The position numbers and the translations under genes were made by a program. The notes below the pieces were generated by a model. That model was given only the letters and a program-made list of their open reading frames with translations. It ran no database searches and was not told the origin of the DNA. DNA of 64,000 bases from Escherichia phage AV124, in sequence record OR352954. One strand, 5' to 3'. Every line of letters begins with the position of its first letter. Position 1 is the stretch's first letter. Below, piece by piece: positions 12,203 through 30,043 of the stretch.

Positions 12203-12230
12203 AAGGCTCCCAAATGGGAGCCTTTTTTAT
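12203..12230. terminator. bidirectional rho-independent terminator at the convergence point
   Basis: Perfect hairpin GGCTCCCA-AAT-GGGAGCC flanked by A-run upstream and T-run downstream, between convergent genes. Confidence 0.6.
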
Positions 12231-13990
12231 TACGGTCTTTGATAGACAGCTACATCATAGACAGTCCCTCTTCCACAATAGGTTACTTGTAGAATTGTAA
12301 CTGAATTTGCAGTAGTGCTGATCGTACCACCATTTATGATTTTATAAGATGCATCAAGGGTGACGGCATGTCCGCCAGTTGCATCCTGGAACAGATAGAT
12401 CGTGGCAGTAAAAGCACTACCAAGATTTGCCCAAGGCCCGATAGTTAAAGTATTTGTCACATCTACGTTGTAGATGTTATTCATCTTCGTCAGATCAGAG
12501 CCTGTCCCTCCTGGTGTCCAAGTTGTTCCTGCGGAAGGTGTGGTAACAGAACCAGGGGTTGTTCCTACAAAATTCGCAGTGACCTTAGGAGCCGTTGCTT
12601 CACCCGTAATAACGAGGGATGCACCTTTTAGAGACCCGTATGCCTCTATTGTGGTGGTTGCCAGAACGGAGTTAGGGTTAATGTCCTTCCCGTTGACATC
12701 AACAGAAACGCCCGTTAGAGTACCAAGTACGTTAAGATTGTTTACAGTTGTTGTGCCTGTCCCACCATTATTAAGGTTGGCGTTTCCAGTAACTGTAAGG
12801 TTGGTGCTTACCGTAGCTGCCCCAGTAACTGCAAGCAGGCCCGTGATGGAGAGGTTTCCTGCAACAGAGCTAGCACTACCGGCTGTAAATCCCCCAGTTA
12901 ATGTGCTGTTTCCATCGACTGTTAATGAACTTACTACGCCTAAATTCTGAATAGAGGCACTTCCGAGAGTTGTTACACCGTTTACAGTTAGATCAGACCC
13001 TATCTCGGCTGTTGTCGTTGTGGCAATAGAGTTGGGGAGAATGTCTAAGCCATCAACACCGACATTGACACCGGACAACGAACCCGTTACTCTTACGTTT
13101 TCAAGTTCTGTCGTTCCGGTTACCTTAAGTCTTGGTTCCGTAGAGGCCTTGGAAGAGTTCCCTCGGATATACACATAGTCGAAGGTGTTATTACCGACAC
13201 CAGTTAATGACATTGTGGTGTTATCTGCACTAGCTGTCCCATTCACAATAACTGCGGAAGTCAGATTATTGGTTTGAACAGAGTTCGGAGATATGATAGT
13301 CTTCAGATAGTTAGAGGCAGCGGTGTAGTCAAAAGAAAGAGTGGCAGTTTGTCCAGATAACGAAATTTTCTGGAATTTACCAAGCACACCAGAGGCATCA
13401 AGCGTCCCACCAAATTGGGATGTCCCAGAAACAACCAATGTGTTAAGGGTTGAAGCACCAACCACCGTAAGAGCAGCATAACTTGGAGAAGACCCAGCAA
13501 GAGAATTGATCGCTGCTGCGACAGCCAAGTTGACAAATGCAGTTGTCGCTATTGCACCACTATTACTTCCCTGAGCAGGGGTAGGCGCTGTCGGAGAACC
13601 GACAAATGCAGGGGTATTAAGAGGTGCAAATTTTTCAGAAACTACAACGGAGTCATTATAAACTTTCCAAGCGGTGCTTGTGGACGGATCGGCAGGTAAA
13701 GTGATAGGTGTAGATGGTGACGCTCCTGGGGCATACCACCAGAAAGTCCCTGCTGAATTGGTGAAGGAATACAGTTGATTAAAAACTGTCGCCTGTGTAC
13801 CAGCCACCCAAGGTTGTGGTGGTGTTTTAAAATACACATTGTCAAGAAGCGCTTTACGTAATGTTGGAATCGTGCTACCATCTTCTACAATAACAGTGTC
13901 GATCGCCGATCCGTTGACCACCTTATGGAGACGCTCAGAATCCTCGATAACCTGATCCACAGCCTGTTCAAATTGTGTTGTATCAGCCAT
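12230..13990 (-). CDS. tail fibre protein (586 aa)
   Basis: Large Ser/Thr/Gly/Asn-rich repetitive beta-type sequence; RBS AAGGAGA; position at end of tail module. Confidence 0.6.
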   Translation of the reverse strand: MADTTQFEQAVDQVIEDSERLHKVVNGSAIDTVIVEDGSTIPTLRKALLDNVYFKTPPQPWVAGTQATVFNQLYSFTNSAGTFWWYAPGASPSTPITLPADPSTSTAWKVYNDSVVVSEKFAPLNTPAFVGSPTAPTPAQGSNSGAIATTAFVNLAVAAAINSLAGSSPSYAALTVVGASTLNTLVVSGTSQFGGTLDASGVLGKFQKISLSGQTATLSFDYTAASNYLKTIISPNSVQTNNLTSAVIVNGTASADNTTMSLTGVGNNTFDYVYIRGNSSKASTEPRLKVTGTTELENVRVTGSLSGVNVGVDGLDILPNSIATTTTAEIGSDLTVNGVTTLGSASIQNLGVVSSLTVDGNSTLTGGFTAGSASSVAGNLSITGLLAVTGAATVSTNLTVTGNANLNNGGTGTTTVNNLNVLGTLTGVSVDVNGKDINPNSVLATTTIEAYGSLKGASLVITGEATAPKVTANFVGTTPGSVTTPSAGTTWTPGGTGSDLTKMNNIYNVDVTNTLTIGPWANLGSAFTATIYLFQDATGGHAVTLDASYKIINGGTISTTANSVTILQVTYCGRGTVYDVAVYQRP

Positions 13991-15084: not shown

Positions 15085-15564
15085 TTAGGCTGTCTGCGGA
15101 AGCTCTGGTTGAGGGTCTCCCTTGGTCCATCCTCTGAGATCGATGATATATTTCTTCATTGTCTCAACCTTATCTTCTTCACCCAGTGCAGCGTAAGTTG
15201 ATAGCAGTATCGCGGCCCTTTGGAAAAGTCCTTGTTTCTTATTTTCAAAGATTCTGTCTTCCATCCACTCCACTTTTTCGAACTCTTCACCGTTAAAGAT
15301 ATGAGTTCTATTAGAGAAATCACTTGGGAGAGAATCTACAAGACGAAAGTAACAATCTTCCGGGAAGAATTTGGTCGGGTCCGTATCTGCCATATAGACC
15401 TGACCGTTAGAATCGTATTGAATATATAGGCCTTTTTGTTTTTCTTTTAATTGAGATACAAAATCGTACCAATCTTGACCGTTCTCATCTTTTAGATATA
15501 AGGCGCCAGGAACCGCAACCTTTTCTGGAGAATATCTAACCCATTTCATATCAGTTATTTTCAT
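15085..15564 (-). CDS. tail fibre assembly protein-like (159 aa)
   Basis: Start at ATG 15564 overlapping the upstream stop (TAATG); immediately downstream of a tail-fibre gene. Confidence 0.4.
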   Translation of the reverse strand: MKITDMKWVRYSPEKVAVPGALYLKDENGQDWYDFVSQLKEKQKGLYIQYDSNGQVYMADTDPTKFFPEDCYFRLVDSLPSDFSNRTHIFNGEEFEKVEWMEDRIFENKKQGLFQRAAILLSTYAALGEEDKVETMKKYIIDLRGWTKGDPQPELPQTA

Positions 15565-16610
15565 TAAAGCCCCACTGTATACCAAATGCCATCAAGAGCT
15601 TTCTGTAAAAATCTGAACCTTATCTCATCAATGTCGTGAAGATAAACATCTCCGCTGGCGTTCGCATCAATCAGGCCAGTCAATACAGAGCCGTCAGGTC
15701 CACGCGCGAAACGTCCACCTGGACCATAATTCTCAAAATCAACGTTGACTTTGTTTTGTTCTCCACTCCAACGAATGTCAGAAACCCCAATACTGATATG
15801 AAGATCACCATTGGCATTTGCAGCGGTACTATTTACTGCACGAACAATGGATCTTCCACCAACGGTTGCGTTGTTGGAGTTTACTACGAGGTTTTGTAAC
15901 GTAGCTGTACCACTAACACCAAGACTGGTTGTCTGAATATTACCACCATTATTAATGGTTGTCGATGCTAAGGTTCCTGTAGTCATCGTACCTGTGGCTG
16001 TAATATTACCCTGGACCCTTAACAGCGCAGTGTTTGTACCAGTTGCATTAAGCTCCATCATGTTGAATGGTGAAACTGTAGCAGAGTTGTTTACAGGAAC
16101 AAAGCGGAACCTCATGATATCAACATTAGATTGTCCAGCTACACCCGGATTATCACCAATTACAAAATCCAAATAGGTTTGGTCAGTACCTAAGGTGGTT
16201 GTGATGTGTGCAGTATCGCTTGCATCAGATGGGAAGGTAATACGCGGAACAGTCAAAGGACCTGTCATCGTGTCACCTTCAACATTCACATAACGATTAT
16301 CCCCTTCAGCTTTACTATAGACCTCTAGATTAGTACGAGCTGTGGCCTTATTCTCCACATCACTTAAGTTCTGGTCTTTTCTTAAATAATCGGCTGCCAT
16401 ACCAGGAATTTGCTCAGTGGAAATGTAAGACATCCACCAAGTCATCATGTTAAGAACATAGTTAAGTTCTTCACAAGCGGGTTTCTCACCCAAATCCCAA
16501 CCCTTATCCCAAAGATCAGCGATAGGGGAGATTTTATTTGCAGTATGAGCATTAGGTAACACGACGTCACTTTCAGCCCATATCTGAAGAGGAATAGTAG
16601 GAATTGCCAT
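15564..16610 (-). CDS. tail fibre protein (348 aa)
   Basis: Thr/Asn/Gly-rich beta-rich sequence; RBS GGGAGA. Confidence 0.5.
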   Translation of the reverse strand: MAIPTIPLQIWAESDVVLPNAHTANKISPIADLWDKGWDLGEKPACEELNYVLNMMTWWMSYISTEQIPGMAADYLRKDQNLSDVENKATARTNLEVYSKAEGDNRYVNVEGDTMTGPLTVPRITFPSDASDTAHITTTLGTDQTYLDFVIGDNPGVAGQSNVDIMRFRFVPVNNSATVSPFNMMELNATGTNTALLRVQGNITATGTMTTGTLASTTINNGGNIQTTSLGVSGTATLQNLVVNSNNATVGGRSIVRAVNSTAANANGDLHISIGVSDIRWSGEQNKVNVDFENYGPGGRFARGPDGSVLTGLIDANASGDVYLHDIDEIRFRFLQKALDGIWYTVGL

Positions 16611-17257: not shown

Positions 17258-18751
17258 TTAGATTATCTGTAGGAATGTAATATTATCAGTGTCGATAGAG
17301 AATACCTCATCCATCCCTGCAACAACATCAGAGGTTGTATAGGAAGTATCAGGATCTCCGACGTTCTTGACATCCACATAAAGTTGTGTAAATCTACCAG
17401 CAGAGATAGAAGAACCTACAGCAGATACAAGCTGGATGTTGTATAAAGTGTCAGCAATGTTAAGCGGGTCAATAACACCTTTGAGGGCGGACTTTATAGT
17501 ATCCTGTTCAGTGGTTGAGAGGACCTTTCCTTTATAACGGACACGGATAGCCAAATCCCGTGCCTGTGCTTTACTGTGATAAATTCGTTCTGTCTGATTA
17601 TCCTCAGTAGGGACATCATAAAAAACATTACCATAGGTAGCGTTAGACAAAGCAATTGAATTATAAAGTGCCTTGCTAATATCTTCAGTAGACCCACCAT
17701 ACACCACGGTCTCAAACTTGTACGGTGGTATTCCATTCTGGTCTGTAGTCCCTGTGTTATTTGAGAAGATTTTAACCTTACTTACACCACTCACCCCAAG
17801 GACAGCACTCACCACCGCAGGTCTGGTCGCAGCCGCACTCGATGCTGTTGTGTTAGAAGCCCTGACCTTGTATTCGGTGTCGGTCTCAACATCTGTACCC
17901 TCTGTGAAGGCATTCATGTTGTTAAGGCTGATGAACCCACCCGGTGTTGGGGAAATCGAGGTTACGGTGTTTTTCTCTCTCGACAGTTCACCTGCCTCAA
18001 CAGCAACAACATCCATTGTGATTGTACGTTCACCAACAATTGGTGATGTCCTGAAATCAACACGGCTATTAAGGCCGATCATTTCAAGATTAGTATCATA
18101 CCCAATGTACAATGCCCCGTTTTGAGAGTCAATGATGATCCTATCATTATTAAGCTCGGAGGTATTGTTGACAATAAAGCTCTTGACAGAGGCCATGAAA
18201 GTGTTAAGCTGAGAGCTATTAGGTGTTTTATTGGTCAACTGAAGAGTTGTTTGACTTGTGGTTCCGGTGTTTTGATTATTGATCTGGAAACTATAAGTAC
18301 CTACAACCCAGTCCTTATTGAGAATTTTTTGTGCCAGTATGTTACCTGCAAGGGTGGTGTCGTCATTTAATACAAATGTACCACTATCAAGTGTGTATGT
18401 GTTTTGGGCATATACCATGTTGTAAGGGACAGTATTATTAACTGTCATCTCAACAGATCCTGAACTTTTTGTCTTCCCTCGACGATAAACACCTCTTCGG
18501 GAAAGCAGCTCATCAAGATAAATCCCCTCAGCCCCTGCAAGGGTCTGAGCCGAATAAACTGACGCTGCCAGAAGGATAATCTGATATTCCCTTTCGTTGA
18601 AAATTGTTGTCAACTTGTCAGCAATTGTGTTAGTTTGCGTGTTGAAATTTTCACCAAAAGTTCTAATGAGGGTCTGTTTTGTGTCTGCGATAAGGTCATC
18701 AAGAGAGGGGATAGTGAAACCGTAATCGCTCAATCCATATTGAGTTGCCAA
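17258..18751 (-). CDS. baseplate protein (497 aa), TTG start
   Basis: Long ORF; TTG start preceded by strong RBS AAGGAGG at 5-nt spacing. Confidence 0.45.
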   Translation of the reverse strand: MATQYGLSDYGFTIPSLDDLIADTKQTLIRTFGENFNTQTNTIADKLTTIFNEREYQIILLAASVYSAQTLAGAEGIYLDELLSRRGVYRRGKTKSSGSVEMTVNNTVPYNMVYAQNTYTLDSGTFVLNDDTTLAGNILAQKILNKDWVVGTYSFQINNQNTGTTSQTTLQLTNKTPNSSQLNTFMASVKSFIVNNTSELNNDRIIIDSQNGALYIGYDTNLEMIGLNSRVDFRTSPIVGERTITMDVVAVEAGELSREKNTVTSISPTPGGFISLNNMNAFTEGTDVETDTEYKVRASNTTASSAAATRPAVVSAVLGVSGVSKVKIFSNNTGTTDQNGIPPYKFETVVYGGSTEDISKALYNSIALSNATYGNVFYDVPTEDNQTERIYHSKAQARDLAIRVRYKGKVLSTTEQDTIKSALKGVIDPLNIADTLYNIQLVSAVGSSISAGRFTQLYVDVKNVGDPDTSYTTSDVVAGMDEVFSIDTDNITFLQII

Positions 18752-18861
18752 TTCGTCCTCCTTTCAGGACCATGATTCTTTTGTATATTTTACCATACGC
18801 GGCAGTGTTTTGCAAATAAAGGGGAAGAAGCTACAAATGAAAAAACCACCCCGAAGGGTGG

Positions 18862-19695
18862 TTAGTTGCCGGACAAAGAGTCTTCCAAGGCTGAAAGGCG
18901 CTTGTCAAGATCCTCCTGCACCGCTATTGTTGCTCTAAGTATCCAGAATAAAAGCTCTTCTTTTCTGAAAGCGTACTCCTCGCCTGCTGGGTTATCACCA
19001 TTAGCTTCCCACTTATCATAGCAAAATGCTGAGTATTTCGTCCAATCAAGACCATACTTAAGCATAATCTTGATAGCATCTTGTACAGTAGGTCCCGAAT
19101 GGAGTCTAGCTAAACCTTTTTCAGAAGAGTATTTTGCCAACCATTGCCAGACAGAGTCTAGTTTTCCAATCTCATAGAACGCTTTTACTTCTGCGGTTGA
19201 AATTTGGCGAAGGTTGGTTTTCTTTTTCTTATTGGAAGTAGAAATCACACTATTCACAGCATAAACTTGATTCCAACGAAGAGCTGTAGTACCGTTTGAA
19301 ATAAAGTTATCCCGCTTAGGGTAAAATGCTGCTAATGATGTAGATATCTGGACACCATAAGATCTTTGCACTGGGCTTATAGATATTGTATCTGCATATG
19401 TCCCAACTTCGTTTCCAGAGGTGGCAAAATAATACCCATTAGATAGATTTTGCCACTTGTTTGAAAGACTGTCCAGAACTTGCTGGACAGTTGATCCTGA
19501 ATGTGTCCCGACCAAAGAGGCCCCTGAGACATCCATGATATCACCTTTCTTTAAGATTCCAATATCAGAAATGAACTTACTAATAGTGGTTTTTTCTGTA
19601 TCAACAGATGACTGGATGATTAGCTCATCAGTATCTGATACCAACACCTTATCAGAAAGATTTCTTATCTTAATGACTGGCAAATCAATTGACAT
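18862..19695 (-). CDS. tail fibre with C-terminal intramolecular-chaperone-like domain
   Basis: Start at ATG 19695 (MSIDLPVIKIRNLSD); C-terminal region resembles the self-cleaving chaperone domain of phage fibres. Confidence 0.45.
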   Translation of the reverse strand: MSIDLPVIKIRNLSDKVLVSDTDELIIQSSVDTEKTTISKFISDIGILKKGDIMDVSGASLVGTHSGSTVQQVLDSLSNKWQNLSNGYYFATSGNEVGTYADTISISPVQRSYGVQISTSLAAFYPKRDNFISNGTTALRWNQVYAVNSVISTSNKKKKTNLRQISTAEVKAFYEIGKLDSVWQWLAKYSSEKGLARLHSGPTVQDAIKIMLKYGLDWTKYSAFCYDKWEANGDNPAGEEYAFRKEELLFWILRATIAVQEDLDKRLSALEDSLSGN

Positions 19696-19756
19696 ATTAA
19701 CCTCGTTTTTAAGTCCCTCGTGACACGAAACGGATTTCTTTAAAGCCCCGTAACCG

Positions 19757-20557
19757 TTAGGCTGCAATCTTGCCAATCCGCTCCATCAGATATGCAAAAA
19801 TCACATCCTGGGCACTAGTCCCGTAGGAATACAGACCAGGTATCACTATTGCATCTGACAGTACAGACGTCAGAGGTGAAACAGACCCATCTCCTGCTCC
19901 GCCCAAATTCATTTTTTGAGACGTGGTGTATTCAGGTATCGTATAGCCAGTCACCTGTCTGGTTGTTACCGCAGACTGGTCAGACCTTTGGTATGCAATA
20001 GCGTAAGCCCCTGTATTTTTGTTAGAACACATAACCACGGCGCAAAACAGACCAGCCCCCATATTTGATGGAGTGAAAGGGACATCTGGCTGTGTGCCAC
20101 CATTAAAAAACACAGGGAAACTACCAGATGAAGTTGTGCGAATACCAACCCCATGAGGTGTTGTTTCTTGGGTTGCGATGGCTATCCTATCTGTCGGGGC
20201 TGATGATAATGCACCTGAAGGCAACTGGTAGATGAAGGCGAACGTATTGATGTTTGCGTCCATAACCACTTCGGTATCACCAGCCATACCGGATGCACCG
20301 GAGAAATTAATCCCCTGCAAAACAGGCCCATTCAGCTTTGTGGATGGCTCGAGGCCTGACTGGGAATTGAATTTTCCACCATCTACCCGGTTTGCGAGTG
20401 CGGAAACTTTTTGCCCGATCCCTAGTTTGATAAAATCAACCGTTGCAGGCGACCATATAGTGGGGTTTAAATTTGCCAGTGCTATTTCCGCAGCTGTCAA
20501 AGAATAAACGGGAAGCAATGGGTTATTTAACCCTGTGTCAGTGTAAAGAAGGCGCAT
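19757..20557 (-). CDS. structural protein (266 aa)
   Basis: ORF with RBS; Gly/Ser/Thr-rich. Confidence 0.45.
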   Translation of the reverse strand: MRLLYTDTGLNNPLLPVYSLTAAEIALANLNPTIWSPATVDFIKLGIGQKVSALANRVDGGKFNSQSGLEPSTKLNGPVLQGINFSGASGMAGDTEVVMDANINTFAFIYQLPSGALSSAPTDRIAIATQETTPHGVGIRTTSSGSFPVFFNGGTQPDVPFTPSNMGAGLFCAVVMCSNKNTGAYAIAYQRSDQSAVTTRQVTGYTIPEYTTSQKMNLGGAGDGSVSPLTSVLSDAIVIPGLYSYGTSAQDVIFAYLMERIGKIAA

Positions 20558-20569
20558 TTTTTTTTATCC

Positions 20570-23092
20570 TCAGAAAACGTTGATTCGAAAAGCCGGTAAC
20601 CAGTCGTAGAGGGTTACAGATGTATCGTATACCCACGCGATTCCGGCAGAAGATCTTACACACCCTCGTGCGCCCAAGGTCTTACCAGAAGGTTTGACAG
20701 TCGCACCGCTTTGAAGAGGATTTTCTACTGTCGCATAGGAAACCCGTCCAAAACGGCCAGTAGGAGCAGATGCTAGGTTAATCAGCACGCCCTTTCCGTC
20801 CGAGCTGATCGCTATGCTAGAAATGGCAGGGGGTGACGCCGATTCATCTGTGTAGTTAAAACCGTAATTTGCCAGGCCATCAATACTAATATTGGTCGTG
20901 TCTATCACCAGGTTGGTATACGAAGGGATGTTTATTTGTATTTGCGTGGGGGAGTTCCATACAAAACCATTCGGAACCATACCATACCAGCCGCTCGTAA
21001 ACCACTCCTGGATAATTGCTCTTGCCACAGCCGCTCCACGTTTATTTTGTGCAGCACAGGTGAGGTGCAAACCGTCCGTAATAAAATCGTACTGATACAA
21101 GGTATTTACGCAACGGAACTGCTCACGGCCATGTAGGTTGTTTACTGACATCCTTACACGCTGGCCTGTAAACGCACCATGCCCGTCATTGACATACCCC
21201 AGCTGGGTGATGGCGATGATCGGCGGTTCGTTTTGACCAGTCCTTGCCATGATGTCACTGATGACTTGCCTCTGGTACTGCTTCATCCTAGACTCATACA
21301 TCCCTTCCCGCAACCCAGACCAGTCCTCGTCTGACTCTCCTTGCATCCAGTCAACGCAGAGAACAATCGGCAGCCAGCCACGCGCTTTACAGGCCGTCAC
21401 GCAGTCTTCGATTGAATCCAGCATGTATTGGTACACGGCATTACCGCGTTTTTGGTACTCGTATGCCTGCCCGGATTGGGCACACACGATTGATAGTGTG
21501 CGCGGCATGATTCCGGTAGCTGCAGCCATATCGCGAATGAAGGTGTTTGCCAAGCCAGATGCTGCAGTCTCCTTATCAGTGCCGCTTACTGCCTCAACCA
21601 GTGGCACCAGAGTAGTGCTGCGTGCCCCCGTTCTCCTGACCCCGCCAGATAGCATAAACGCGTTATCAGGATAAACTGGCGTCGACGCGATAATGGTTTG
21701 ATCCGCATCTGGGCAATAGCCGCGTGCATTAGACTGCCCGGCAGTTACAAAAATGAAGCATACCGGAACATCTTCTGAATACGGGTAAGCCGTAGACCCT
21801 GACAAATGGAGTCCATACTCAGGGAGGATAGTCATATCATCGCCGCCACCCCCTCCACTCTCCTGGTTAACAAGAACCAAGCCGCTATCGGAGTAGATCC
21901 AGTGATGGCCGCCAACCGTGTAAGCCTCAACGATCTGGTTTGTCGTGGCGTCAACGATCATGCGCCACACCTTTTCACCGCCGATAAATTGCGGCACTGC
22001 CCCCTCAGTTCCGAGCGCATATAACTCAGCCTCTTGCGGCGTGAGCACTTCATAATATTTTCCGTCAGGACCAATTTGTATTAACCGCCCAGCGGCGTTT
22101 AAAAAAGGAGCCACTCTTTTTGTCTCCGGGTCATAACCCGCCAGGGCCACACTGTTTGATGATATCTGGTATGCGTAGTCGTCACGAGCTATCAACCTAT
22201 CTGTCGGATTAAGAACCCCTGAATTATTCACATACTCATTTGCTAGGGTTGAGTCTGAAGAATTTCTAACCCAACAATGTGCCCCATTTGGGATATTACC
22301 TGCCGCAACCTCATTCTGGGCTACCGCCAGCGATTCATATCCCCGGATGGTATTTATAATGGCCCCTGTTCCTGGAACAGCCGCGACTTCTTGAGCAACC
22401 CCTGCATTATTCTTGTACACTTTGAACGCTACAGAGCTACCACTTCCCTGAGGCACTTGGAAATATTGTCCATCCGTAGTTGCAGCAAGACCTTCACTAA
22501 CAGATGCGTATAAGTTTCCCAGCTCAGAGGCCTGCAATGCATATGCTTGTGCCTCATCTCTCGCATCTTCTGCTTGGTCTTTTGCCTCAACTGCTTCGTT
22601 TTTGATTTCTGTTACTTCATCGAGCAGACTCAAACCACCAACAGTTACCCATGCAGATGCTGAAACACCACCTGTTGTAGACGGGGTGGATTTTTCGGGT
22701 ACTGTCTTGGGGAATGTCCCTCCCCATGTGTAACATTGCGCTCCTGCAATATGCCAAATAGCATCGTTGGCATAGGTTAATGTTGCACCATCTTCGAAAG
22801 AACCTTCTACCAAAGTTAGCCCAAGATCATGAAGTGCTCTTCTCCATAATTCTCTCTCATTTGCACGGGCAGTGTCAAGACTTTGTTGGACATGTGTCCC
22901 ATCAGAGGTCCCTATAAGGGAGGCACCGCCATCCGCCGCCAAATCCCCTTTGTTAGCCAAGTCTAAGTCGGAGATAACCTGGGAGACAGTGGCCTTTTTG
23001 GTCTTATCTGGTTGTTCTACAACAAGGTAGTCGTCTCCGACCACTTGGGTTGCGGAGGGTAACTCCGCAATTTTAATTGTATCAAAGGCCAT
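20570..23092 (-). CDS. tailspike with SASA-type carbohydrate esterase domain
   Basis: Start at ATG 23092 (MAFDTIKIAELPSAT...) with RBS GGAGGG; shared N-terminal anchor motif; esterase signatures FVTAGQSNARG and WMQGESD. Confidence 0.65.
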   Translation of the reverse strand: MAFDTIKIAELPSATQVVGDDYLVVEQPDKTKKATVSQVISDLDLANKGDLAADGGASLIGTSDGTHVQQSLDTARANERELWRRALHDLGLTLVEGSFEDGATLTYANDAIWHIAGAQCYTWGGTFPKTVPEKSTPSTTGGVSASAWVTVGGLSLLDEVTEIKNEAVEAKDQAEDARDEAQAYALQASELGNLYASVSEGLAATTDGQYFQVPQGSGSSVAFKVYKNNAGVAQEVAAVPGTGAIINTIRGYESLAVAQNEVAAGNIPNGAHCWVRNSSDSTLANEYVNNSGVLNPTDRLIARDDYAYQISSNSVALAGYDPETKRVAPFLNAAGRLIQIGPDGKYYEVLTPQEAELYALGTEGAVPQFIGGEKVWRMIVDATTNQIVEAYTVGGHHWIYSDSGLVLVNQESGGGGGDDMTILPEYGLHLSGSTAYPYSEDVPVCFIFVTAGQSNARGYCPDADQTIIASTPVYPDNAFMLSGGVRRTGARSTTLVPLVEAVSGTDKETAASGLANTFIRDMAAATGIMPRTLSIVCAQSGQAYEYQKRGNAVYQYMLDSIEDCVTACKARGWLPIVLCVDWMQGESDEDWSGLREGMYESRMKQYQRQVISDIMARTGQNEPPIIAITQLGYVNDGHGAFTGQRVRMSVNNLHGREQFRCVNTLYQYDFITDGLHLTCAAQNKRGAAVARAIIQEWFTSGWYGMVPNGFVWNSPTQIQINIPSYTNLVIDTTNISIDGLANYGFNYTDESASPPAISSIAISSDGKGVLINLASAPTGRFGRVSYATVENPLQSGATVKPSGKTLGARGCVRSSAGIAWVYDTSVTLYDWLPAFRINVF

Positions 23093-23290
23093 TTTTTGCC
23101 CTCCAAGAAGTTTATTTAGAATAGTCAATGATGACTGTCATATAATTGTTAAAGCTTTACATGGCAGGGGTGGGCTATCATACCCGCAACGGTAGGCTGT
23201 TCTTCCCTAACCGTTGCAGGCCGTAGTTAGTGTGAATTGTTGCGTATGTCATTATTGTGGTCTATTTATACAAACAATAATATTCATAAA

Positions 23291-24970
23291 TTACATAGAT
23301 GGAAGTAGTGAAACGTTCACCGATCTAGCCAAACCATCTACGCTGGTAAGCAATACTGTAATTTCCCCATCTGTTGCTGATATAGACAAAGCAACCTTGA
23401 CCCCTGTGCCAGAAAGGCCAATCCTTCCAGAGTTTGCGACAATTCCGCTGGTGATGATATCAAGATAGAAGTTGTTTTCGTGCCTTACACCTATAGGTAT
23501 TTTTATATAATCACTCTGCGCAGTACTACCAATCCTACACTCAATCAATATGGCTCTGGTGATATACGTATCATATATGCCTTGCAAAATATTAGTTTTA
23601 GTGAATGATAATGTTGCGCCAGCAGATGCGGCAAGGATTCCTGAAGAAAGTGGCCCTATTATACGTCTACCATTGACTACCTGATTCATCCCCACGTTTA
23701 CATCGTCATTAATCCCAAGACATCCAGTAATAGACTTCCTTACCGTCGAGGCTTTTTGATTAATGGCAGATGTCACAAATCCAGTCATATCCGAGCCTGA
23801 AATAAGAAGTGTTCCACCTCCAGCCCCAAGTATTGACACGTTGAAAGATGGCGATGTTGTCCCGCCGTCTCCGCTATCGTTTGCACCCTTCCCGGTTCTT
23901 ACGTTTCCAATTTGTAACTTGCCATTATCAATGATGATGAAGTTAGCAGAGTAATCACTTCCCTCTGGCTGGCTTGCGCCGCATCGCCTTACGTCAGCGC
24001 CGGTTACAATCCATTGTGCATCTTTGCCAGCCACTACACCGCCACGCCCAGCGCGGTCGCACAATTCGCCAATAATTGTATTTTCTACGGACTCATAAGC
24101 ATAATAGTTGTCTGTGGCATTCCATTCGTTTCTGCATGAATCAAAGTTGTTGTTATTTGATCCACCAGTCAAGGCAACGCCGCGATTGTTTGCGTTAATC
24201 ACGCAAGCAACAAGGTTGGAATCAATCAGGTTTCTCACACCGTCACCGCACCCAGACACAGAACAACGGGTGGCAAACAACGTCCCGGTGTAACCAGACC
24301 AACCAAGACCAACCGTAAAGTTGTATATGCCGCAACCTTCAAATCGCGTGCCGTTAAATTGCTCTGAAGAATTGGTGGAATAGAGCAGATAAGTAGTTCT
24401 ATCTCTACCGTTAAAAACAATATCCCTGAAAACGTGCCTTTTGTTGGAGTAAAACGGGAACGTTTTTCCTGTAGCCACTTCAATCACAACGCCGCAATCG
24501 TCAAATGCACTGTCTGTCAATGGGTTGTATGGCCTAAAGCAACCCTCACCAATCATAAAGAAACCAGAAGGTAGTGTGGCAGGGGAGTTCCCAAAGATGT
24601 AGCGACCTTTTACCCTAGGCAGGCATAGTGTCATTACTCCGTCAGAAATAGCATCCTTTAACGCATAGTCACAATCAACCTTAGCCCCGGTTGTTGAAAG
24701 AAGGGTTGCACGGTCAGTATCGTTCAAATAGCTAAAAATTGACTTTTGCGTTATTTCATCAAGTGGCGCTTTGCCTTTGTATACTTTACCAGAACCATCC
24801 GGCTGCGCCAAAGCCGCCAGCGTTGACTGCCCAACAACATCTCCAAGATAATTTAAAACTTGAAATAAAGTTGCCTTCTTTGTATCGTCGGGTTGATCGA
24901 CCACGATCAGATCGTCTTCTGTTAGAGTGTCCGCGCTTGGCAACTCTGAAATTTTAACACTCTGTAGCAT
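23291..24970 (-). CDS. tailspike, beta-helix type (559 aa)
   Basis: Start at ATG 24970 (MLQSVKISELPSADT...) with RBS GAGGGG; same N-terminal anchor motif; Asn/Gly-rich repetitive body. Confidence 0.55.
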   Translation of the reverse strand: MLQSVKISELPSADTLTEDDLIVVDQPDDTKKATLFQVLNYLGDVVGQSTLAALAQPDGSGKVYKGKAPLDEITQKSIFSYLNDTDRATLLSTTGAKVDCDYALKDAISDGVMTLCLPRVKGRYIFGNSPATLPSGFFMIGEGCFRPYNPLTDSAFDDCGVVIEVATGKTFPFYSNKRHVFRDIVFNGRDRTTYLLYSTNSSEQFNGTRFEGCGIYNFTVGLGWSGYTGTLFATRCSVSGCGDGVRNLIDSNLVACVINANNRGVALTGGSNNNNFDSCRNEWNATDNYYAYESVENTIIGELCDRAGRGGVVAGKDAQWIVTGADVRRCGASQPEGSDYSANFIIIDNGKLQIGNVRTGKGANDSGDGGTTSPSFNVSILGAGGGTLLISGSDMTGFVTSAINQKASTVRKSITGCLGINDDVNVGMNQVVNGRRIIGPLSSGILAASAGATLSFTKTNILQGIYDTYITRAILIECRIGSTAQSDYIKIPIGVRHENNFYLDIITSGIVANSGRIGLSGTGVKVALSISATDGEITVLLTSVDGLARSVNVSLLPSM

Positions 24971-25057
24971 CTTATATTTACCCCTCTTCTTAACATTAGT
25001 ACATTTTACCACAAAGTTCAAAGATTTAAAAGAAGGGACCTTACGGTCCCTTGCTAA

Positions 25058-26701
25058 TCATGTTCCAAATCCAACAATTCTATATTTCAAGGATGAGTTG
25101 TTGGTTGTGATGGAGACAACAACACCACCATCGGTTGTCCCATCTACTGTGGACAAAGTAAAGAGTCTTGAACCACCTGTCGTAGAACCAGTTCCTGGTG
25201 TCTGGTCATGATTACCGATAACCGTATAAGTGACCACCCCTTCCCGGTTAGTAGCAATCAGTTCAACAGCCTGCGCCCAACTTGTTTGAGCAGAGGTCCA
25301 AACATCGATAAAAATTTTCTTGGTTGTCCGGTTCGGTATGGTGATAAGTTGAGTATCTCCGGCGGCATAAAGCCCTTTAGTCCTAGTGTGATATTCGATC
25401 CATTGTAGATTATAACCCGGACTGGAAGTTGTCGGTTCTTGAGAGGTGTAGGACCATCTTGTTACTTCCCCGACTTGGCTAACATGCTCAATTTTTCTTG
25501 AAAACTTATCTCTCAGCACGAAACTATAAGACCTCACACCATTGCTTTGGAGGTCTACGTCAGCCTCTTTAGGATTTGGGTAGCTCCCTGTACCACCTAC
25601 TTCGAACAGATCTTTTTTGCCAGCATCTGGCGCAATCCATCCATTTTTATCCATGTTGGCAAAGAATTCCTCAAATGCAAGCCAATACGATTCTTGATGC
25701 CCCAGAAGGTTGGGGTGAACAGTTTGCCCACTGTTAAACAATGAGCTAATGCCATACTTGGCAAGGGCATCGAACCAATATTTTTCGACATCGATAAGAA
25801 CACAACCCATTTCTACAGCAATCTGGCGAATAGCATCGTTTCCTCGCAAGAAACGATGGCCCACCGTAATGGTCACACCATTCCATACTAAATCTACATT
25901 TGACTCGGCAGCGGAAGGGATGATACTATCATCAGAAACGGGGGCCGGGGAAGGGGAAGGCCATACTTGGGCGACACCCGGAGGCATACTCCAAGAATAA
26001 ATGGGGATATTAGGATGTGGGGTGGTAGTAAGAATAACGTCACCACCTGCATCCCTAACATTTCTGATTGCAGCTCTTAATCTTTGCTTAAACCCATTCT
26101 CGTTGAAAGTCTGACCTGCGTTGTAGTTTGCTGTGGGAAAATCATTCATCCCATACACGAATAAGGCAATATCTGGATATGTCCCAGTAGCAACAACAGC
26201 AGGCCATTGGTCAACCAAAAAATTATTGATCGTTGACCCGTTTACAGACCTATTTACAAAGGATAGTGGATATATCCCACCTTTATTAATGGATTTGTTA
26301 AAGAATTCAAAGAATTTAGCCACAGGAGCTTGGGTGGCAGGATCTGGTAATGTTGCACCATTCCCCACAGAAGACCCAAATCCGTACAGTAGAAACTGCG
26401 TCTGCCCAGAGGCACCATGACGATAGGCGGTTAGTTTGTTAATAAGTTGGGGAAAGAGTGCCTGTGAATTCCCCGAAGCAGCCCTAATGGATTCCTCAAC
26501 TGTTTTACCTGTGGCTGTCCCTATAAGGCTCGCACCATCATCATCAGCAAACATAGTTTCTCTGGATATATCCATATCAGAAACTAGTTGACTTAAGGTT
26601 GTCTTTTTCGTAGCATCTACTTGCTCCACAACAAGCAGGTCAGTCCCTGCAAGTGTAGAGGATGGAGGAAGTTCCGAGATCCTTGTGGTTGGTATTGACA
26701 T
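25058..26701 (-). CDS. tailspike with SGNH/GDSL-type hydrolase-like domain
   Basis: N-terminal anchor MSIPTTRISELPPSSTLAGTDLLVVEQVDATKKTT; candidate SGNH blocks (YGFGSS, YGMND); RBS GGGAGAA. Confidence 0.55.
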   Translation of the reverse strand: MSIPTTRISELPPSSTLAGTDLLVVEQVDATKKTTLSQLVSDMDISRETMFADDDGASLIGTATGKTVEESIRAASGNSQALFPQLINKLTAYRHGASGQTQFLLYGFGSSVGNGATLPDPATQAPVAKFFEFFNKSINKGGIYPLSFVNRSVNGSTINNFLVDQWPAVVATGTYPDIALFVYGMNDFPTANYNAGQTFNENGFKQRLRAAIRNVRDAGGDVILTTTPHPNIPIYSWSMPPGVAQVWPSPSPAPVSDDSIIPSAAESNVDLVWNGVTITVGHRFLRGNDAIRQIAVEMGCVLIDVEKYWFDALAKYGISSLFNSGQTVHPNLLGHQESYWLAFEEFFANMDKNGWIAPDAGKKDLFEVGGTGSYPNPKEADVDLQSNGVRSYSFVLRDKFSRKIEHVSQVGEVTRWSYTSQEPTTSSPGYNLQWIEYHTRTKGLYAAGDTQLITIPNRTTKKIFIDVWTSAQTSWAQAVELIATNREGVVTYTVIGNHDQTPGTGSTTGGSRLFTLSTVDGTTDGGVVVSITTNNSSLKYRIVGFGT

Positions 26702-26713
26702 TTTTTCTCCCGA

Positions 26714-27328
26714 TTATTTAATAGTATTAATTGTGTTGTCTTCTGGCGTAACAATAGGCGTACTTTTACGAGTTAGTAATGATCCGGGGGTCACCGGATT
26801 TTCCATATCGCCTGCCCAAGTATTCCACCAAGTTGCATCACCAGTCTTAGGTAATCTAAAGTTGATAAGGTAGTATAACTTATTTCCCCAAGGTATCCAA
26901 CCCTCATCCCCGCAAAGAGTTGTTGTTTCAGGCACCGGCGTCGGGTAGTAGTAATCATCACCGCCTACGAAGGCTATTCTTACAATCTCCTGCTCTTTTG
27001 TTAAGACTTCAAAGAAGGCAGAATAGCTTCTTGTTGTATGGTCCATTACAGACTGGAAATCTGCAATTTCTAAAACATCTGGTTCAAGACGGGTTATTTC
27101 CTTTATCTTATTATCAAGGACCGTCTTCATAACCTTTTTGCTTATGTAGGTTCTATAGGGAAATCCAAAGGTCTCATCAAAATACCAATCCCCTGCCCAC
27201 ACATTAAACCTTAGCCATAAGCGCTGTCGTAGACTTACTTGATTGGAGTCTATCAACTGAAGACCTGTAGAAACATCAAGGTCTCCTGTTACCGGGTCCA
27301 TTAAGAAGTCAGAATAAAGTGTCGCCAT
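26714..27328 (-). CDS. structural protein (204 aa)
   Basis: RBS GGTGAGGAG; within the tailspike cluster. Confidence 0.45.
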   Translation of the reverse strand: MATLYSDFLMDPVTGDLDVSTGLQLIDSNQVSLRQRLWLRFNVWAGDWYFDETFGFPYRTYISKKVMKTVLDNKIKEITRLEPDVLEIADFQSVMDHTTRSYSAFFEVLTKEQEIVRIAFVGGDDYYYPTPVPETTTLCGDEGWIPWGNKLYYLINFRLPKTGDATWWNTWAGDMENPVTPGSLLTRKSTPIVTPEDNTINTIK

Positions 27329-27339
27329 TGCTCCTCACC

Positions 27340-28575
27340 TTAAAGTTGGTCTGGGAATGCGTTATTCTCAGAAATGATATTAGAAATTCCATCTACAATT
27401 GCGGTAGACGCCCTTTTAACGCCTATTCCAAGACCATTTTTTACAGTTACCGATCCTGTTACTGTTCCCTTGGCATTATCCAGCCAAGCACAACCCGCCT
27501 GATTGGCAATGGTCCCGGCGGTATTACCAAGACGCATATTCCCATCCATTACAACAGGTCCGTACTCAGTATCTCCATGAATATCACATGTTCCTGACTC
27601 TATAACAACCATACCGCCAGACACATTATGGTTAAAAGTCCCACCATTGAGTATCATTGTGGTTGTTTCATGATTAGATGCCCCTTGAGCAGATTGTCCT
27701 GGAGCATCTCCATTATAGCTACCATCACAACCATTGAGTATCATGAGGCCAGCGCCTCCAGTTGGGGCATGTTGTCCAAAACCATCGTTACTTATACGAT
27801 AAGCCTTTACATTGGTACATTCTATTCTTTCATTTCTTCCTGTACCACCAACGCCTCCATTAGCACAGTATTCAACCACAGAGTCATACACCGTTAGAAA
27901 ACCTGTACCAGCAGGTTGAGTTGATAAGCCGCAGGATATCCCATTAATCATACAATATCTTGAGACTACATCCCTTACCGTAAGTAACCCGAAACCAACC
28001 GTACCGACACCGAAGTTTCTTCTTGAAACCTCTATTTGATGGGTATTCGGGTCTGAATCATCAGGAAGCCTGACGTATATTGTCGAACCACTATAGCCGT
28101 ATTGTCCTAAACCTGGAGTTGTTGGGGTGGTAGTATTCTGGACAAGCTTAAGATAAAAATCATCTTTGTCGGCTATTGTCTCTGTCATCGTGGTAACAAC
28201 CACTTGCATTACAGATGTGTAATTTATAACCTTAGAATAAATGTTTCCAGAGAGTACCCATCCTGAAGTATGCATTTCAGAACCATATATGTGCCAAGGT
28301 TCATTGTCAATACCCTCCAAGAAAACATTCATGGAAGTATCAAAAATAACTTCCTGGCGTAAAGGGTTTGTTTCTGGTGCAGCAATTTTTATGACATAGT
28401 CAGGAAGCCCAGCGCAGAGACCTAGTGCGAGGGACAAGGAGTTGACAGGATTGTTTAATGATCCTGTTCCTGCTGCGGAACCTCTCACAGTATCAACATA
28501 AAGAGGGTTTGGTGGGTATGTCCTAAGGACCCCCGGCGTGGGAACTCCTGTTCTCCAAGTTTGGGTAACACTCAT
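27340..28575 (-). CDS. tailspike-like beta-helix protein (411 aa)
   Basis: Gly/Asn/Thr-rich repetitive sequence; lacks the N-terminal anchor motif; RBS AAGGTGG. Confidence 0.45.
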   Translation of the reverse strand: MSVTQTWRTGVPTPGVLRTYPPNPLYVDTVRGSAAGTGSLNNPVNSLSLALGLCAGLPDYVIKIAAPETNPLRQEVIFDTSMNVFLEGIDNEPWHIYGSEMHTSGWVLSGNIYSKVINYTSVMQVVVTTMTETIADKDDFYLKLVQNTTTPTTPGLGQYGYSGSTIYVRLPDDSDPNTHQIEVSRRNFGVGTVGFGLLTVRDVVSRYCMINGISCGLSTQPAGTGFLTVYDSVVEYCANGGVGGTGRNERIECTNVKAYRISNDGFGQHAPTGGAGLMILNGCDGSYNGDAPGQSAQGASNHETTTMILNGGTFNHNVSGGMVVIESGTCDIHGDTEYGPVVMDGNMRLGNTAGTIANQAGCAWLDNAKGTVTGSVTVKNGLGIGVKRASTAIVDGISNIISENNAFPDQL

Positions 28576-28576
28576 C

Positions 28577-29329
28577 TTATGCCACCTTTGTCAATCTTAC
28601 TGCCAGAAGAACAATAGCTGTTGCAACGGTATCGTTAGCTGATGTACCATTTCTACCGACACGGACAGTGGTATGTCTTGTTGGGTCAACAGTTAGATCT
28701 TGCAATATCTGTGATTCAACCGCAATATACGGTGTTGCATTTGCCACGGGAATTACTGCTCCGCCTGCTGGCGCTTGGTTGAATGATTCCCCTGCTGACC
28801 AACTGTTGATCAAACCTGAAAAGCTTACTGAACCAGAATTAGATACCATATTTGACCAGATCAAGGAGATTCTCATCTTTGTCCAATGGGACGGGAGGTC
28901 TATCATCTTTGATACGGAAGCATCTACACCGTGATTAAACTGCCAGCCCCCAAGACGTTGTGCGACAGCTCCGTAAGTTGCTGTTCCAATAACGAGATCG
29001 AAATCTTTCGCAGGAATGACTATGGAAGTTACAGCATTTTCAGGATCTGCGGTAATTGCGTCAACGGATGTTTGAAGTTCTGTAAATTGTTGTTTTGTTG
29101 GTAGCTGGCTAGCTGTCTGTTCTGCGCTATCTGCTGCTTGGACGGCTTCATCTTTGGCAGCAACCGCCTCATCCTTGATGTCAGTAATGTCTTGAATAAT
29201 TCCAATATCATTCATTGCCTTATCAAATGTAGCTTTCTTAGTTCCACCTGCCTGCTCAAATATGATAAGGTCGTTACCAGAAACGCTATCTGCATCAGGA
29301 AGCTCTGGAATACGGATTGTAAGACTCAT
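28577..29329 (-). CDS. receptor-binding protein with N-terminal anchor (250 aa)
   Basis: MSLTIRIPELPDADSVSGNDLIIFEQAGGTKKATF matches the anchor shared by three other spikes; RBS AAGGAAA. Confidence 0.5.
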   Translation of the reverse strand: MSLTIRIPELPDADSVSGNDLIIFEQAGGTKKATFDKAMNDIGIIQDITDIKDEAVAAKDEAVQAADSAEQTASQLPTKQQFTELQTSVDAITADPENAVTSIVIPAKDFDLVIGTATYGAVAQRLGGWQFNHGVDASVSKMIDLPSHWTKMRISLIWSNMVSNSGSVSFSGLINSWSAGESFNQAPAGGAVIPVANATPYIAVESQILQDLTVDPTRHTTVRVGRNGTSANDTVATAIVLLAVRLTKVA

Positions 29330-29341
29330 TATGTTTTCCTT

Positions 29342-30043
29342 TTATTGGTTTGGGGCATCAGTATTGTTCTGACCACCATCATCTGTCCAAGTATAGTGAT
29401 GTGTATGGCGAATAAAATAATCATAAAAATCATTCATGTTGACACCACGCGCAGTAATAATATTGCCATCAGGGGTAACTTGAGCGCCATTCATCTTAAT
29501 CGTACCACCAGATTCTGCTGTCAGGTTTGCCGCTCCATTATCGAATTTGAAATTCCCAGATTGGTCAACCACTAATTTACCTACTGGCGTCTCCAGTGTG
29601 AAATCACCAGCAGGCGTCATTGAGAAATGCACCTTGTCGTTCCAAAGTTCAACATTGTCTGGATCTATGGTCATGGCATTCCCATCGCTGTGAACACCAA
29701 TTATTGCCCACCCTGGGAACATATTATGAGTTGTCTGGTCATTATTATCATTCTCATTTCTTTCTGAGAAGCTTAGACCCACAATATCACCAGGCTTCAC
29801 AGGAAGCGTTAGGCGGGCTTTTCCTCCATTACCTGAAGGCATTGATAGAGGAACATCAAAAACAGAACCATAGGCATCCACGGTGCCATCTGGGAAGTTT
29901 GTACTTGCAAGGGGTTGAACTGTTGCAGATGGGATGCTATAGTCTACATCAACTACCTTTGCCCTTAGCCCTGTGTGAATATCTCTGGCCTGTTTCGCAA
30001 ACCATTGATTAAGGGCTGCATCCATACGAGTTATTGCTGCCAT
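29342..30043 (-). CDS. baseplate central spike-like protein
   Basis: Start at ATG 30043 with RBS GGAGGG; C-terminal His cluster RHTHHY reminiscent of spike-tip metal sites. Confidence 0.4.
   Translation of the reverse strand: MAAITRMDAALNQWFAKQARDIHTGLRAKVVDVDYSIPSATVQPLASTNFPDGTVDAYGSVFDVPLSMPSGNGGKARLTLPVKPGDIVGLSFSERNENDNNDQTTHNMFPGWAIIGVHSDGNAMTIDPDNVELWNDKVHFSMTPAGDFTLETPVGKLVVDQSGNFKFDNGAANLTAESGGTIKMNGAQVTPDGNIITARGVNMNDFYDYFIRHTHHYTWTDDGGQNNTDAPNQ

Follow-up and report, generated by a model that had tools for sequence, protein, structure and literature searches.

Why should one phage carry several neighboring proteins that begin alike and then continue into unrelated bodies? The question is raised by a 64,000-nucleotide (nt) stretch of Escherichia phage AV124 (record OR352954; hereafter the window), in which the original prediction had listed four proteins with a common N-terminal pattern and proposed that they form a modular multi-spike adsorption apparatus. 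With the module at positions 18000-30000 in focus, we found that these genes lie between the spike/sheath-initiator genes and the wedge genes of a Mydovirus, and that their N-termini are fixed while their bodies have been swapped with unrelated phages, in agreement with that proposal. Our reading, to which we assign a probability of about 70%, is that the region is the receptor-binding module of the Mydovirus contractile tail, with five proteins that share an anchor named here for its residues ELP, with exchangeable bodies behind it, and with the anchor acting as the address for attachment to the virion.

The four proteins (designated by length as p840, p559, p547, and p250) start where they had been placed, at minus-strand ATG codons at 23092, 24970, 26701, and 29329, respectively. 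The starts are preceded by Shine-Dalgarno-like runs of purines, and homologues in the databases (P0045, P0046, and P0059) open with the same residues, both of which support the placement. Pairwise alignment of the first 50 residues yielded 17-23 identities over 39-48 columns, and the Smith-Waterman scores of 92-124 compared with means of 22-25 for shuffled sequences (standard deviation 4-5, maximum 50) correspond to z = 14-22, while BLASTP among the four N-termini gave E values of 1e-18 to 6e-7; the similarity is significant. The pattern was also as first described, M..(I/V)(K/R)I.ELP.A....G.DL.VV(E/D)Q....TKK(A/T)T. The count of four held for the proteins named but was too low, for a fifth copy starts at 19695 (p277, 277 residues, 19695-18862). 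It is more divergent (z = 5-11; BLASTP 1e-12 against p840). A hidden Markov model (HMM) of the five N-termini, run against the six-frame translation of the window, returned exactly five matches, among them p277 at E = 9e-23, and the next best hit had E = 0.48. The description of the proteins as paralogous likewise needs a boundary: it applies to the N-terminal ~45-90 residues, after which similarity ends and the bodies are unrelated, with two exceptions. One is a coiled-coil stretch common to p250 and p840. The other is a motif, GASL(I/V)GT....(T/H)V(Q/E), that follows the anchor in p840 (22910-22927), p547 (26519-26536), and p277 (19507-19524) but not in p559 or p250, so that in the first three the common stretch extends to ~75-90 residues, not ~45.

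The coding DNA of the five anchors has diverged to a mean column identity of 63%, and a search of the anchor region for exact DNA stretches shared among the paralogs, which could have served as arms for intragenomic recombination, found none. Conservation thus lies at the protein level. This result bears on the idea that the shared N-termini are kept as DNA homology arms for cassette exchange and not for any function of the protein. That idea draws on a preprint reporting short high-identity "recombination hotspots" within the first 100 residues of Klebsiella phage receptor-binding proteins (RBPs) (10.64898/2026.05.12.724579), and the junctions in the window do fall just after the anchor; yet the amino acid motif is kept even in very distant proteins, although the paralogous DNA is so diverged. 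Homology arms may operate between orthologous anchors of different phages, which would leave the paralogy unexplained, and we regard the idea as a very improbable account of the shared anchor.

The bodies behind the anchors were identified one by one. All of these genes are on the minus strand, as is every gene across the window from 12 to 35 kb. p559 (23291..24970) begins with what we term anchor type A (MLQSVKISELP..., residues 1-47, nt 24830-24970) and continues into a beta-helix tailspike body (residues ~70-447 and beyond, nt 23630-24763; PDB 7xy1_A; phrog_6518 at 4e-127). The beta-helix-like spike of the original prediction is thereby given an identity, as residues 70-447 are homologous (E = 4e-37) to the Kp9 gp42 tailspike (PDB 7XY1), a solved homotrimer (PMC12295037). 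By this homology, p559 belongs to that group and is a predicted trimeric beta-helix tailspike depolymerase. Residues 1-74 are 75-82% identical to those of 616- and 607-residue spikes of other Mydoviruses and the sequences are divergent beyond, and the body (nt 23207-24828) is matched at 86-87% nucleotide identity by tailspike genes in Klebsiella phages of 45-49 kb genome size, namely Snook, RCIP0019, and SF_KL25. The change of body is therefore placed at about residues 47-75.

The protein starting at 23092, p840 (20570..23092), carries anchor type B (MAFDTIKIAELP..., residues 1-50, nt 22943-23092), followed by a Tail_spike_N domain (Pfam PF18668, residues 95-152, nt 22637-22810) that matches CBA120 tailspike sequences in the PDB, a coiled coil (residues ~155-190), a SASA esterase domain (residues 447-695, nt 21008-21754), and a C-terminal beta-rich tail. 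The SASA assignment made earlier was borne out at the sequence level, with 51.1 bits for PF03629 against a cutoff of 24.8 and with intact catalytic motifs (GQSN 452-455, QGESD 584-588, and DGLH 673-676). Residues 1-299 are Mydovirus-specific and 67-75% identical to the 1104- and 1131-residue spikes of Seu621 and K45PH128C2, and residues 245-840 are 87% identical to a 658-residue tail-locus protein of the temperate Klebsiella phage ST16-OXA48phi5.2, where it occupies a tail-fibre position downstream of Baseplate_J and DUF2612. The body thus changes at about residues 245-300. The GC content of positions 20001-22000 (0.503) is the highest 2-kb value of the window, with neighbors at 0.41-0.46, and coincides with the prophage-derived part of p840.

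Directly after p840 lies a gene for an anchorless protein, p266 (19757..20557), that was inherited together with the SASA body: a protein 90% identical to p266 is encoded immediately after the 658-residue homologue in ST16-OXA48phi5.2, and p266 is absent from Seu621, K45PH128C2, and VLCpiM5b. It matched nothing in Pfam, the PDB, or NCBIfam (NCBIfam returned only a spurious sub-threshold spoVK hit). p266 could be a partner, an assembly factor or chaperone, or a distal subunit of the SASA spike. Together with the p559 and p840 bodies, it occurs in no other Mydovirus of the collection.

p547 (25058..26701) has anchor type C (MSIPTTRISELPPSS..., residues 1-50, nt 26552-26701) and a putative GDSL/SGNH esterase domain (residues 142-336, nt 25694-26278) with 45.4 bits for Lipase_GDSL_2 (PF13472) against a cutoff of 32.9, which agrees with the SGNH-like hydrolase proposed for this start; the whole protein matches phrog_18703 at 6e-228. 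Block I (GFGSS 107-111), block III (GMND 184-187), and the block V histidine (VHPN 328-331) are present. The protein is 94.5% identical to a 547-residue protein of VLCpiM5b and absent from the other Mydoviruses checked. Two esterases at this locus might instead be enzymes of lysis or superinfection exclusion that merely bear the motif, and an SGNH protein of a related Klebsiella phage has been suggested to be endolysin-like (PMC9989827). Such a role would be highly unlikely for p840 and p547, considering that both genes are inside the baseplate operon, that both products carry the same anchor as a bona fide tailspike and match "tail fiber" PHROGs, and that the SASA body derives from a prophage tail-fibre position. 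There is also precedent for a virion-borne esterase in G7C gp63.1 (PMC6872550).

The protein starting at 29329 had been described simply as short. It is short and it is anchored, but p250 (28577..29329) holds more than that description conveys: anchor type D (MSLTIRIPELPDAD..., residues 1-45, nt 29195-29329) is followed by a coiled coil (residues ~46-99, nt 29033-29194) and a beta-sandwich resembling carbohydrate-binding modules (CBMs) of families CBM6/35/36 (residues 100-250, nt 28580-29032), and the protein has a putative partner that had not been listed. This is p411 (27340..28575), an anchorless right-handed beta-helix protein and candidate glycanase encoded directly downstream, with its ATG one base past the p250 stop codon (TAAGATG). 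The p411 fold was predicted by AF2 with a predicted local distance difference test (pLDDT) score of 93.1, and Foldseek matched the model to GH120 (E = 3.5e-8), BT_1002, GH110, pectate lyase, and phage tailspikes. Across 46 homologues, E182, N263, D264, D290, and H302 are invariant; p411 has no Pfam match and no assignable CAZy family. Its N-terminal peptide (residues 1-25) bears the conserved pattern W..G.P...R..PPNPLYVDTV. The database cluster identical to 27340-28575 (P0194) takes its name from Escherichia phage AV124, a Mydovirus whose isolation host was E. coli.

Residues 61-250 of p250 and the whole of p411 are 73% and 77% identical, respectively, to the adjacent gp13 and gp12 of Jedunavirus IME346. 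IME346 gp13 opens with a different N-terminus, as do the prophage versions, which places the change of body at about residues 60-75; in all, among prophages and phages of Klebsiella and E. coli, the p250 body stands behind eight or more distinct N-termini. In every context examined (a lambda-like prophage, two myovirus-type prophages, a 141-kb phage, and IME346), a ~78% identical p411 homologue of 410 or 411 residues directly follows the p250-like gene. We rejected the possibility that a frameshift has divided a single gene into p250 and p411, as the layout of two open reading frames (ORFs; 250-300 plus 410-411 residues) is kept in five independent contexts. IME346, which encodes its homologous pair at L004 5641-7665, was reported to lyse only K63 Klebsiella strains, and by analogy this hints at a K63-type substrate for p411.

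The p250/p411 cassette (27329-29341) lies outside the main RBP cluster as a clean ~2-kb insertion between the stop codon of the central spike gene and the ribosome-binding site of the sheath initiator gene. In phages without the cassette, the latter site directly follows the spike stop, and in Seu621 and VLCpiM5b the two genes are 9-11 nt apart. Type D and p411 are common to K45PH128C2 and K18PH07C1 at 99-100% identity. In the contig of the 141-kb phage (L006), an ELP-type p250-like protein and its 410-residue partner are the only candidate RBPs called between the sheath initiator and the wedge, along with an additional ORF of 93 residues with no Pfam match. A single ELP-anchored pair at this site suggests that mounting a spike on a phi92-type baseplate takes no more than one ELP module.

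The fifth anchored protein, p277 (18862..19695), carries anchor type E (MSIDLPVIKIRNLSDK..., residues 1-50, nt 19546-19695), matches phrog_23437 at 2e-163, and is 79-97% identical in other Mydoviruses. Its C-terminal part contains a Peptidase_S74 intramolecular chaperone (PF13884, residues 155-215, nt 19051-19233; 32.1 bits against a cutoff of 22) with predicted autocleavage. Considered together, the identities of the exchanged bodies indicate probable donors for three of them: a Jedunavirus or prophages for p250/p411, a Webervirus for p559, and a temperate Klebsiella phage for p840.

Are the anchors interchangeable copies, or does each have its own place? The same five types (A-E) recur among eight Mydovirus loci, with types A, B, and E in nearly all of them, type C in two, and type D in three; the window of AV124 is the only one with all five together. 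Anchors of one type are 71-100% identical between phages, compared with 18-62% between types, which suggests five distinct docking addresses. Judged from these sequence comparisons, the types are old paralogs, each conserved across the genus, that most likely occupy five different docking positions on the wedge periphery, on one another, or both.

Some peculiarities of single records were also seen. In the Mydovirus NDO71, the anchored proteins number only two (types A and B), and the short fibre of type E, conserved elsewhere, is missing. In VLCpiM5b (L003 5464-7809), the type B spike is split into an anchor-only ORF of 134/156 residues and a body ORF of 522/566 residues, by a frameshift or sequencing error or as a natural two-piece version. 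The deposited feature tables of two Mydovirus records, OY978796 and OY978784, were set aside because they disagree with the ORFs (entries such as "DNA ligase" and "endonuclease VII" cover genes for tail fibres). Almost every feature in them is marked as a pseudogene, and the annotation seems to be shifted relative to the sequence.

We then considered the anchor as a domain in its own right. Neither a Pfam search (E <= 10) with the five isolated N-termini nor a PDB search with the five-sequence anchor profile produced a family or a credible match. With a more diverse profile of 65 sequences, the sole lead in the PDB was residues 28-58 of crAss001 gp22 (E = 0.0047), a weak match that adjoins but does not include residues 1-26, the segment seated in the crAss001 docking hub. 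crAss001 gp22 was thus rejected as an anchor homologue, and its similarity is a lead and not a result. The N-terminal repeats of T4 gp12 (residues 1-200, ECOD 1083.1.1), reported as a shared RBP anchor, were also discarded as a relative, with an hhalign probability of 11% over 13 columns; T4 gp12 was absent among the PDB matches of the 65-sequence profile at E <= 10. In the AF2 model of p250, the anchor was unfolded (pLDDT < 50 for residues 1-33). Comparison of the anchor profile with 1.84 billion cluster representatives identified 288 clusters at E <= 1e-3. Of the best 149, 141 carry it no later than residue 12, on proteins of 43-1294 residues, and 28 representatives have two or more tandem copies, some of them internal (P0070, P0086, P0102, and P0146). 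The module is thus a self-contained unit. Among cultured phages, tblastn located the anchor almost exclusively in enterobacterial phages of ~135-160 kb, including PVP-SE1, SSE121, GAP31, and 4MG, the exception being one 46-kb metagenomic record; it was not detected in phi92-type records at E <= 0.01.

The metagenomic proteins P0070, P0086, P0102, P0146, and P0067 have 2 to ~10 tandem ELP...TKK repeats of 40-65 residues each before beta-helix-like bodies, which suggests that the module can also build a shaft. One further weak match to the profile, P0130, is a 980-residue protein with 13 near-identical ~70-residue repeats; its sequence resembles a DNA tandem repeat read as protein, and a true relationship is unlikely. 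The repeats raise the possibility that ELP...TKK is mainly a trimerisation or shaft-nucleating repeat, located at the N-terminus for the reason that fibre folding starts there, and the tandem and internal copies in the 28 representatives speak for such a function. We consider this improbable: a copy stands at the extreme N-terminus in 141 of the 149 representatives, precisely the ELP segment is replaced when bodies move to another tail type (IME346 gp13 and the prophage versions), and five type-specific variants are kept across the genus, for which a generic folding nucleus would have no need. A more far-reaching proposal, which we advance tentatively and at less than even odds, is that ELP...TKK is a previously undescribed self-contained trimeric docking/repeat domain with five orthogonal addresses, that the baseplate is a rack with optional and independently fillable positions, and that p250/p411 is a universal two-part spike that is re-plugged among siphovirus, small-myovirus, and large-myovirus tails by swapping its first ~50-70 residues.

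To what would these anchors attach? By sequence, the tail region of the window is the tail/baseplate module of a ~145-kb Klebsiella myophage of the genus Mydovirus (Vequintavirinae). A megablast search with positions 18000-30000 matched only Mydovirus (Vequintavirinae) genomes, at 87-94% nt identity; the best matches, K45PH128C2 and K18PH07C1, reached 93-94% identity over only 50% of the query, and no record in the phage collection spans >50% of it. The conserved half comprises the baseplate genes and the variable half the fibre genes. The spike, sheath initiator, wedge, DUF2612 protein, and 348-residue fibre are 87-99.6% identical in amino acids to those of relatives, and the module is syntenic with those of Seu621, BIS47, and Mydo and with phi92 gp134-gp147. 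From Pfam, PHROGs, and this synteny, we assigned the gene order as tape measure (34754-32343), Dit-like tube initiator, Pam3_gp18-like plug, hub, and the gp138-like central spike of the baseplate (29342..30043, PF18352), which forms the upstream boundary of the p250/p411 insertion and is 98-99.6% identical in Seu621, K45PH128C2, and VLCpiM5b. Between the cassette and the main RBP cluster is the gp25/gp139-like sheath initiator (26714..27328, phrog_120), whose L006 homologue carries PF10934 (Sheath_initiator); p547, p559, p840, p266, and p277 follow in that order. The cluster ends at the 497-residue Baseplate_J wedge (17258..18751, PF04865), the equivalent of phi92 gp145, which would form the wedge heterotrimer with a 209-residue protein (17249-16620), and after which come the DUF2612 wedge protein, the 348-residue fibre, and the assembly protein of that fibre. 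The 348-residue fibre (15564-16610) is Mu-like, has neither an ELP anchor nor a Pfam match, occupies the position of the phi92 gp147 gene (fibre III), and is 87-99% identical in other Mydoviruses. A second tail fibre, of 586 residues (12230-13990), also has no ELP anchor and no Pfam match.

The Baseplate_J wedge protein, where one or more of the anchored fibres most likely dock, is 98.8-99.4% identical whatever optional RBPs are present, and for the wedge proteins together the range is 98.8-99.5% across phages with two to five anchored RBPs. Combined with the report that in phi92 fibre II joins fibre I at its base and not the wedge (PMC13450770), this near-identity makes a branched arrangement a serious alternative, in which one or two anchored proteins touch the wedge (the best candidates being p277 and p840 with its 300-residue head) and the others plug into them, as in the TSP1-4 tailspike proteins (TSPs) of Ackermannviridae or G7C gp66/gp63.1. 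The sheath initiator, too, is invariant with the number of anchored RBPs, and the long, genus-conserved N-terminal region of p840 includes PF18668, the N-terminal domain of TSP1 and gp66. Arguing in the other direction, Pfam and PHROGs gave no T4 gp10-like or XD-type domain, types A and B persist in NDO71 although type E is gone, and the single ELP protein of L006 has nothing to branch from. On balance, we hold hierarchical branching to be rather unlikely.

Several points weigh against our overall reading. The presence of these proteins in the virion and their docking there are inferred. The anchor has no credible homologue in Pfam or the PDB, and no T4 gp10-like or XD docking domain was found at the sequence level in the seven proteins (five anchored, two partners) by Pfam, PHROGs, or PDB sequence search. 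The internal tandem repeats in some proteins would fit a generic trimeric building block as opposed to a dedicated socket plug. Whether a phage has 2, 3, 4, or 5 anchored proteins, its wedge is essentially the same, so that extra wedge sockets are not evident. Finally, the block V aspartate of the p547 esterase is replaced (QTVHPN), leaving only a Ser-His dyad evident.

If the anchor is nevertheless the attachment address, adsorption may proceed as follows, on the basis of what is known of these protein families. Five presumably trimeric RBPs would each be held by the ELP...TKK module at a position, on the wedge or around it, that is specific to the anchor type. The putative depolymerases p559 and p411 would open the capsule, and the predicted serine esterases p840 (SASA) and p547 (SGNH) would strip O-acetyl groups of capsule or O-antigen that block binding or cleavage. 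The coiled-coil stalk of p250, with its CBM-like lectin domain, might recruit the separate beta-helix glycanase p411, just as p266 may form a complex with p840, and the same CBM-like domain, together with the short p277 fibre (matured by its S74 chaperone), could supply extra binding contacts. The 348-residue Mu-like fibre III and the central spike would thereafter play the parts that they have in phi92. Over evolutionary time, recombination immediately past the anchor would have brought in bodies from siphoviruses, small myoviruses, and prophages, with the anchor keeping compatibility with the baseplate.

Such a module matters in that the host range of Klebsiella phages is set mainly by RBPs and capsule diversity limits therapy. 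The predicted load of the AV124 baseplate, five anchored proteins and two partners, amounts to at least two beta-helix glycanases, two esterases, one lectin-like domain, and one conserved fibre. For engineering, the locus offers natural junctions at residues ~47-75 (type A), ~60-75 (type D), and ~245-300 (type B), the existence of five type-specific anchors suggests that the position of each body could be chosen, and p250/p411, found in three tail architectures, provides a test case for how exchange of a short N-terminal segment directs a spike to a different virion.

Among known systems, the p250/p411 pair follows the same logic as the two-protein RBP of the JD001 group (Jedunavirus), a non-enzymatic anchor protein followed by an anchorless beta-helix protein, which Latka et al. 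(2019) modelled as a truncated anchor protein plus a separate depolymerase (PMC6872550); physical interaction is a model in both cases. The difference is that p250 has the Mydovirus ELP anchor in place of the N-terminal ~60 residues, and the published JD001 depolymerases, of 668-757 residues, have a conserved ~70-residue N-terminal docking domain (PMC6872550). The TSP1-4 proteins of Ackermannviridae (CBA120, Kuttervirus) resemble the AV124 set in providing several spikes of different specificity per baseplate, in module exchange, and in the PF18668 domain of p840, but they belong to another virus lineage, the AV124 proteins have no XD or T4 gp10-like domains by sequence, and the ELP anchor does not match the TSPs. 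The predicted esterases p840 and p547 recall gp63.1 of the N4-like phage G7C, a virion-borne O-acetyl esterase RBP beside another spike, gp66, after which PF18668 is named; gp63.1 docks on the T4 gp10-like domain of gp66 (PMC6872550), whereas the AV124 esterases each carry their own ELP anchor. phi92 is similar in gene order from the tape measure to fibre III, in having several fibre types per wedge, and in combining capsule-degrading spikes with fibres, and differs in the ELP anchor, which its type of record lacked at the threshold used above. Fibre I of phi92 docks on the C-terminal domain of gp145 (PMC13450770), but fibre attachment in rV5- and phi92-like baseplates was not resolved at 7-9 Å (PMC12143355, PMC13450770), and the identity and attachment of phi92 fibres I and II are not settled, so phi92 gives no docking template.

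The closest relatives are the other Mydovirus loci (KB57, KpS8/Seu621, BIS47, Mydo, VLCpiM5b, K45PH128C2, and K18PH07C1), which share with AV124 the backbone (87-94% nt identity), identical synteny, and types A, B, and E; type C is common to AV124 and VLCpiM5b, type D with p411 to AV124, K45PH128C2, and K18PH07C1, and none of the others combines all five. Mydoviruses have been reported to combine up to eleven RBP classes, including SGNH/esterase "capsule surface remodellers", and to swap receptor-binding domains with Webervirus; in the same work, N-terminal sharing dominates between RBP classes, and N-terminal scaffolds attach the RBPs (10.64898/2026.05.12.724579). Multi-RBP Mydoviruses and N-terminal sharing are thus already published, the concept is unchanged, and AV124 is an unusually complete, clean, and well-delimited example of a known design. 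To that design the present analysis adds a fifth paralog, two anchorless partners, exact mosaic junctions with their probable donors, five orthologous anchor types, and the anchor itself as a defined and widespread but uncurated and uncharacterised domain.

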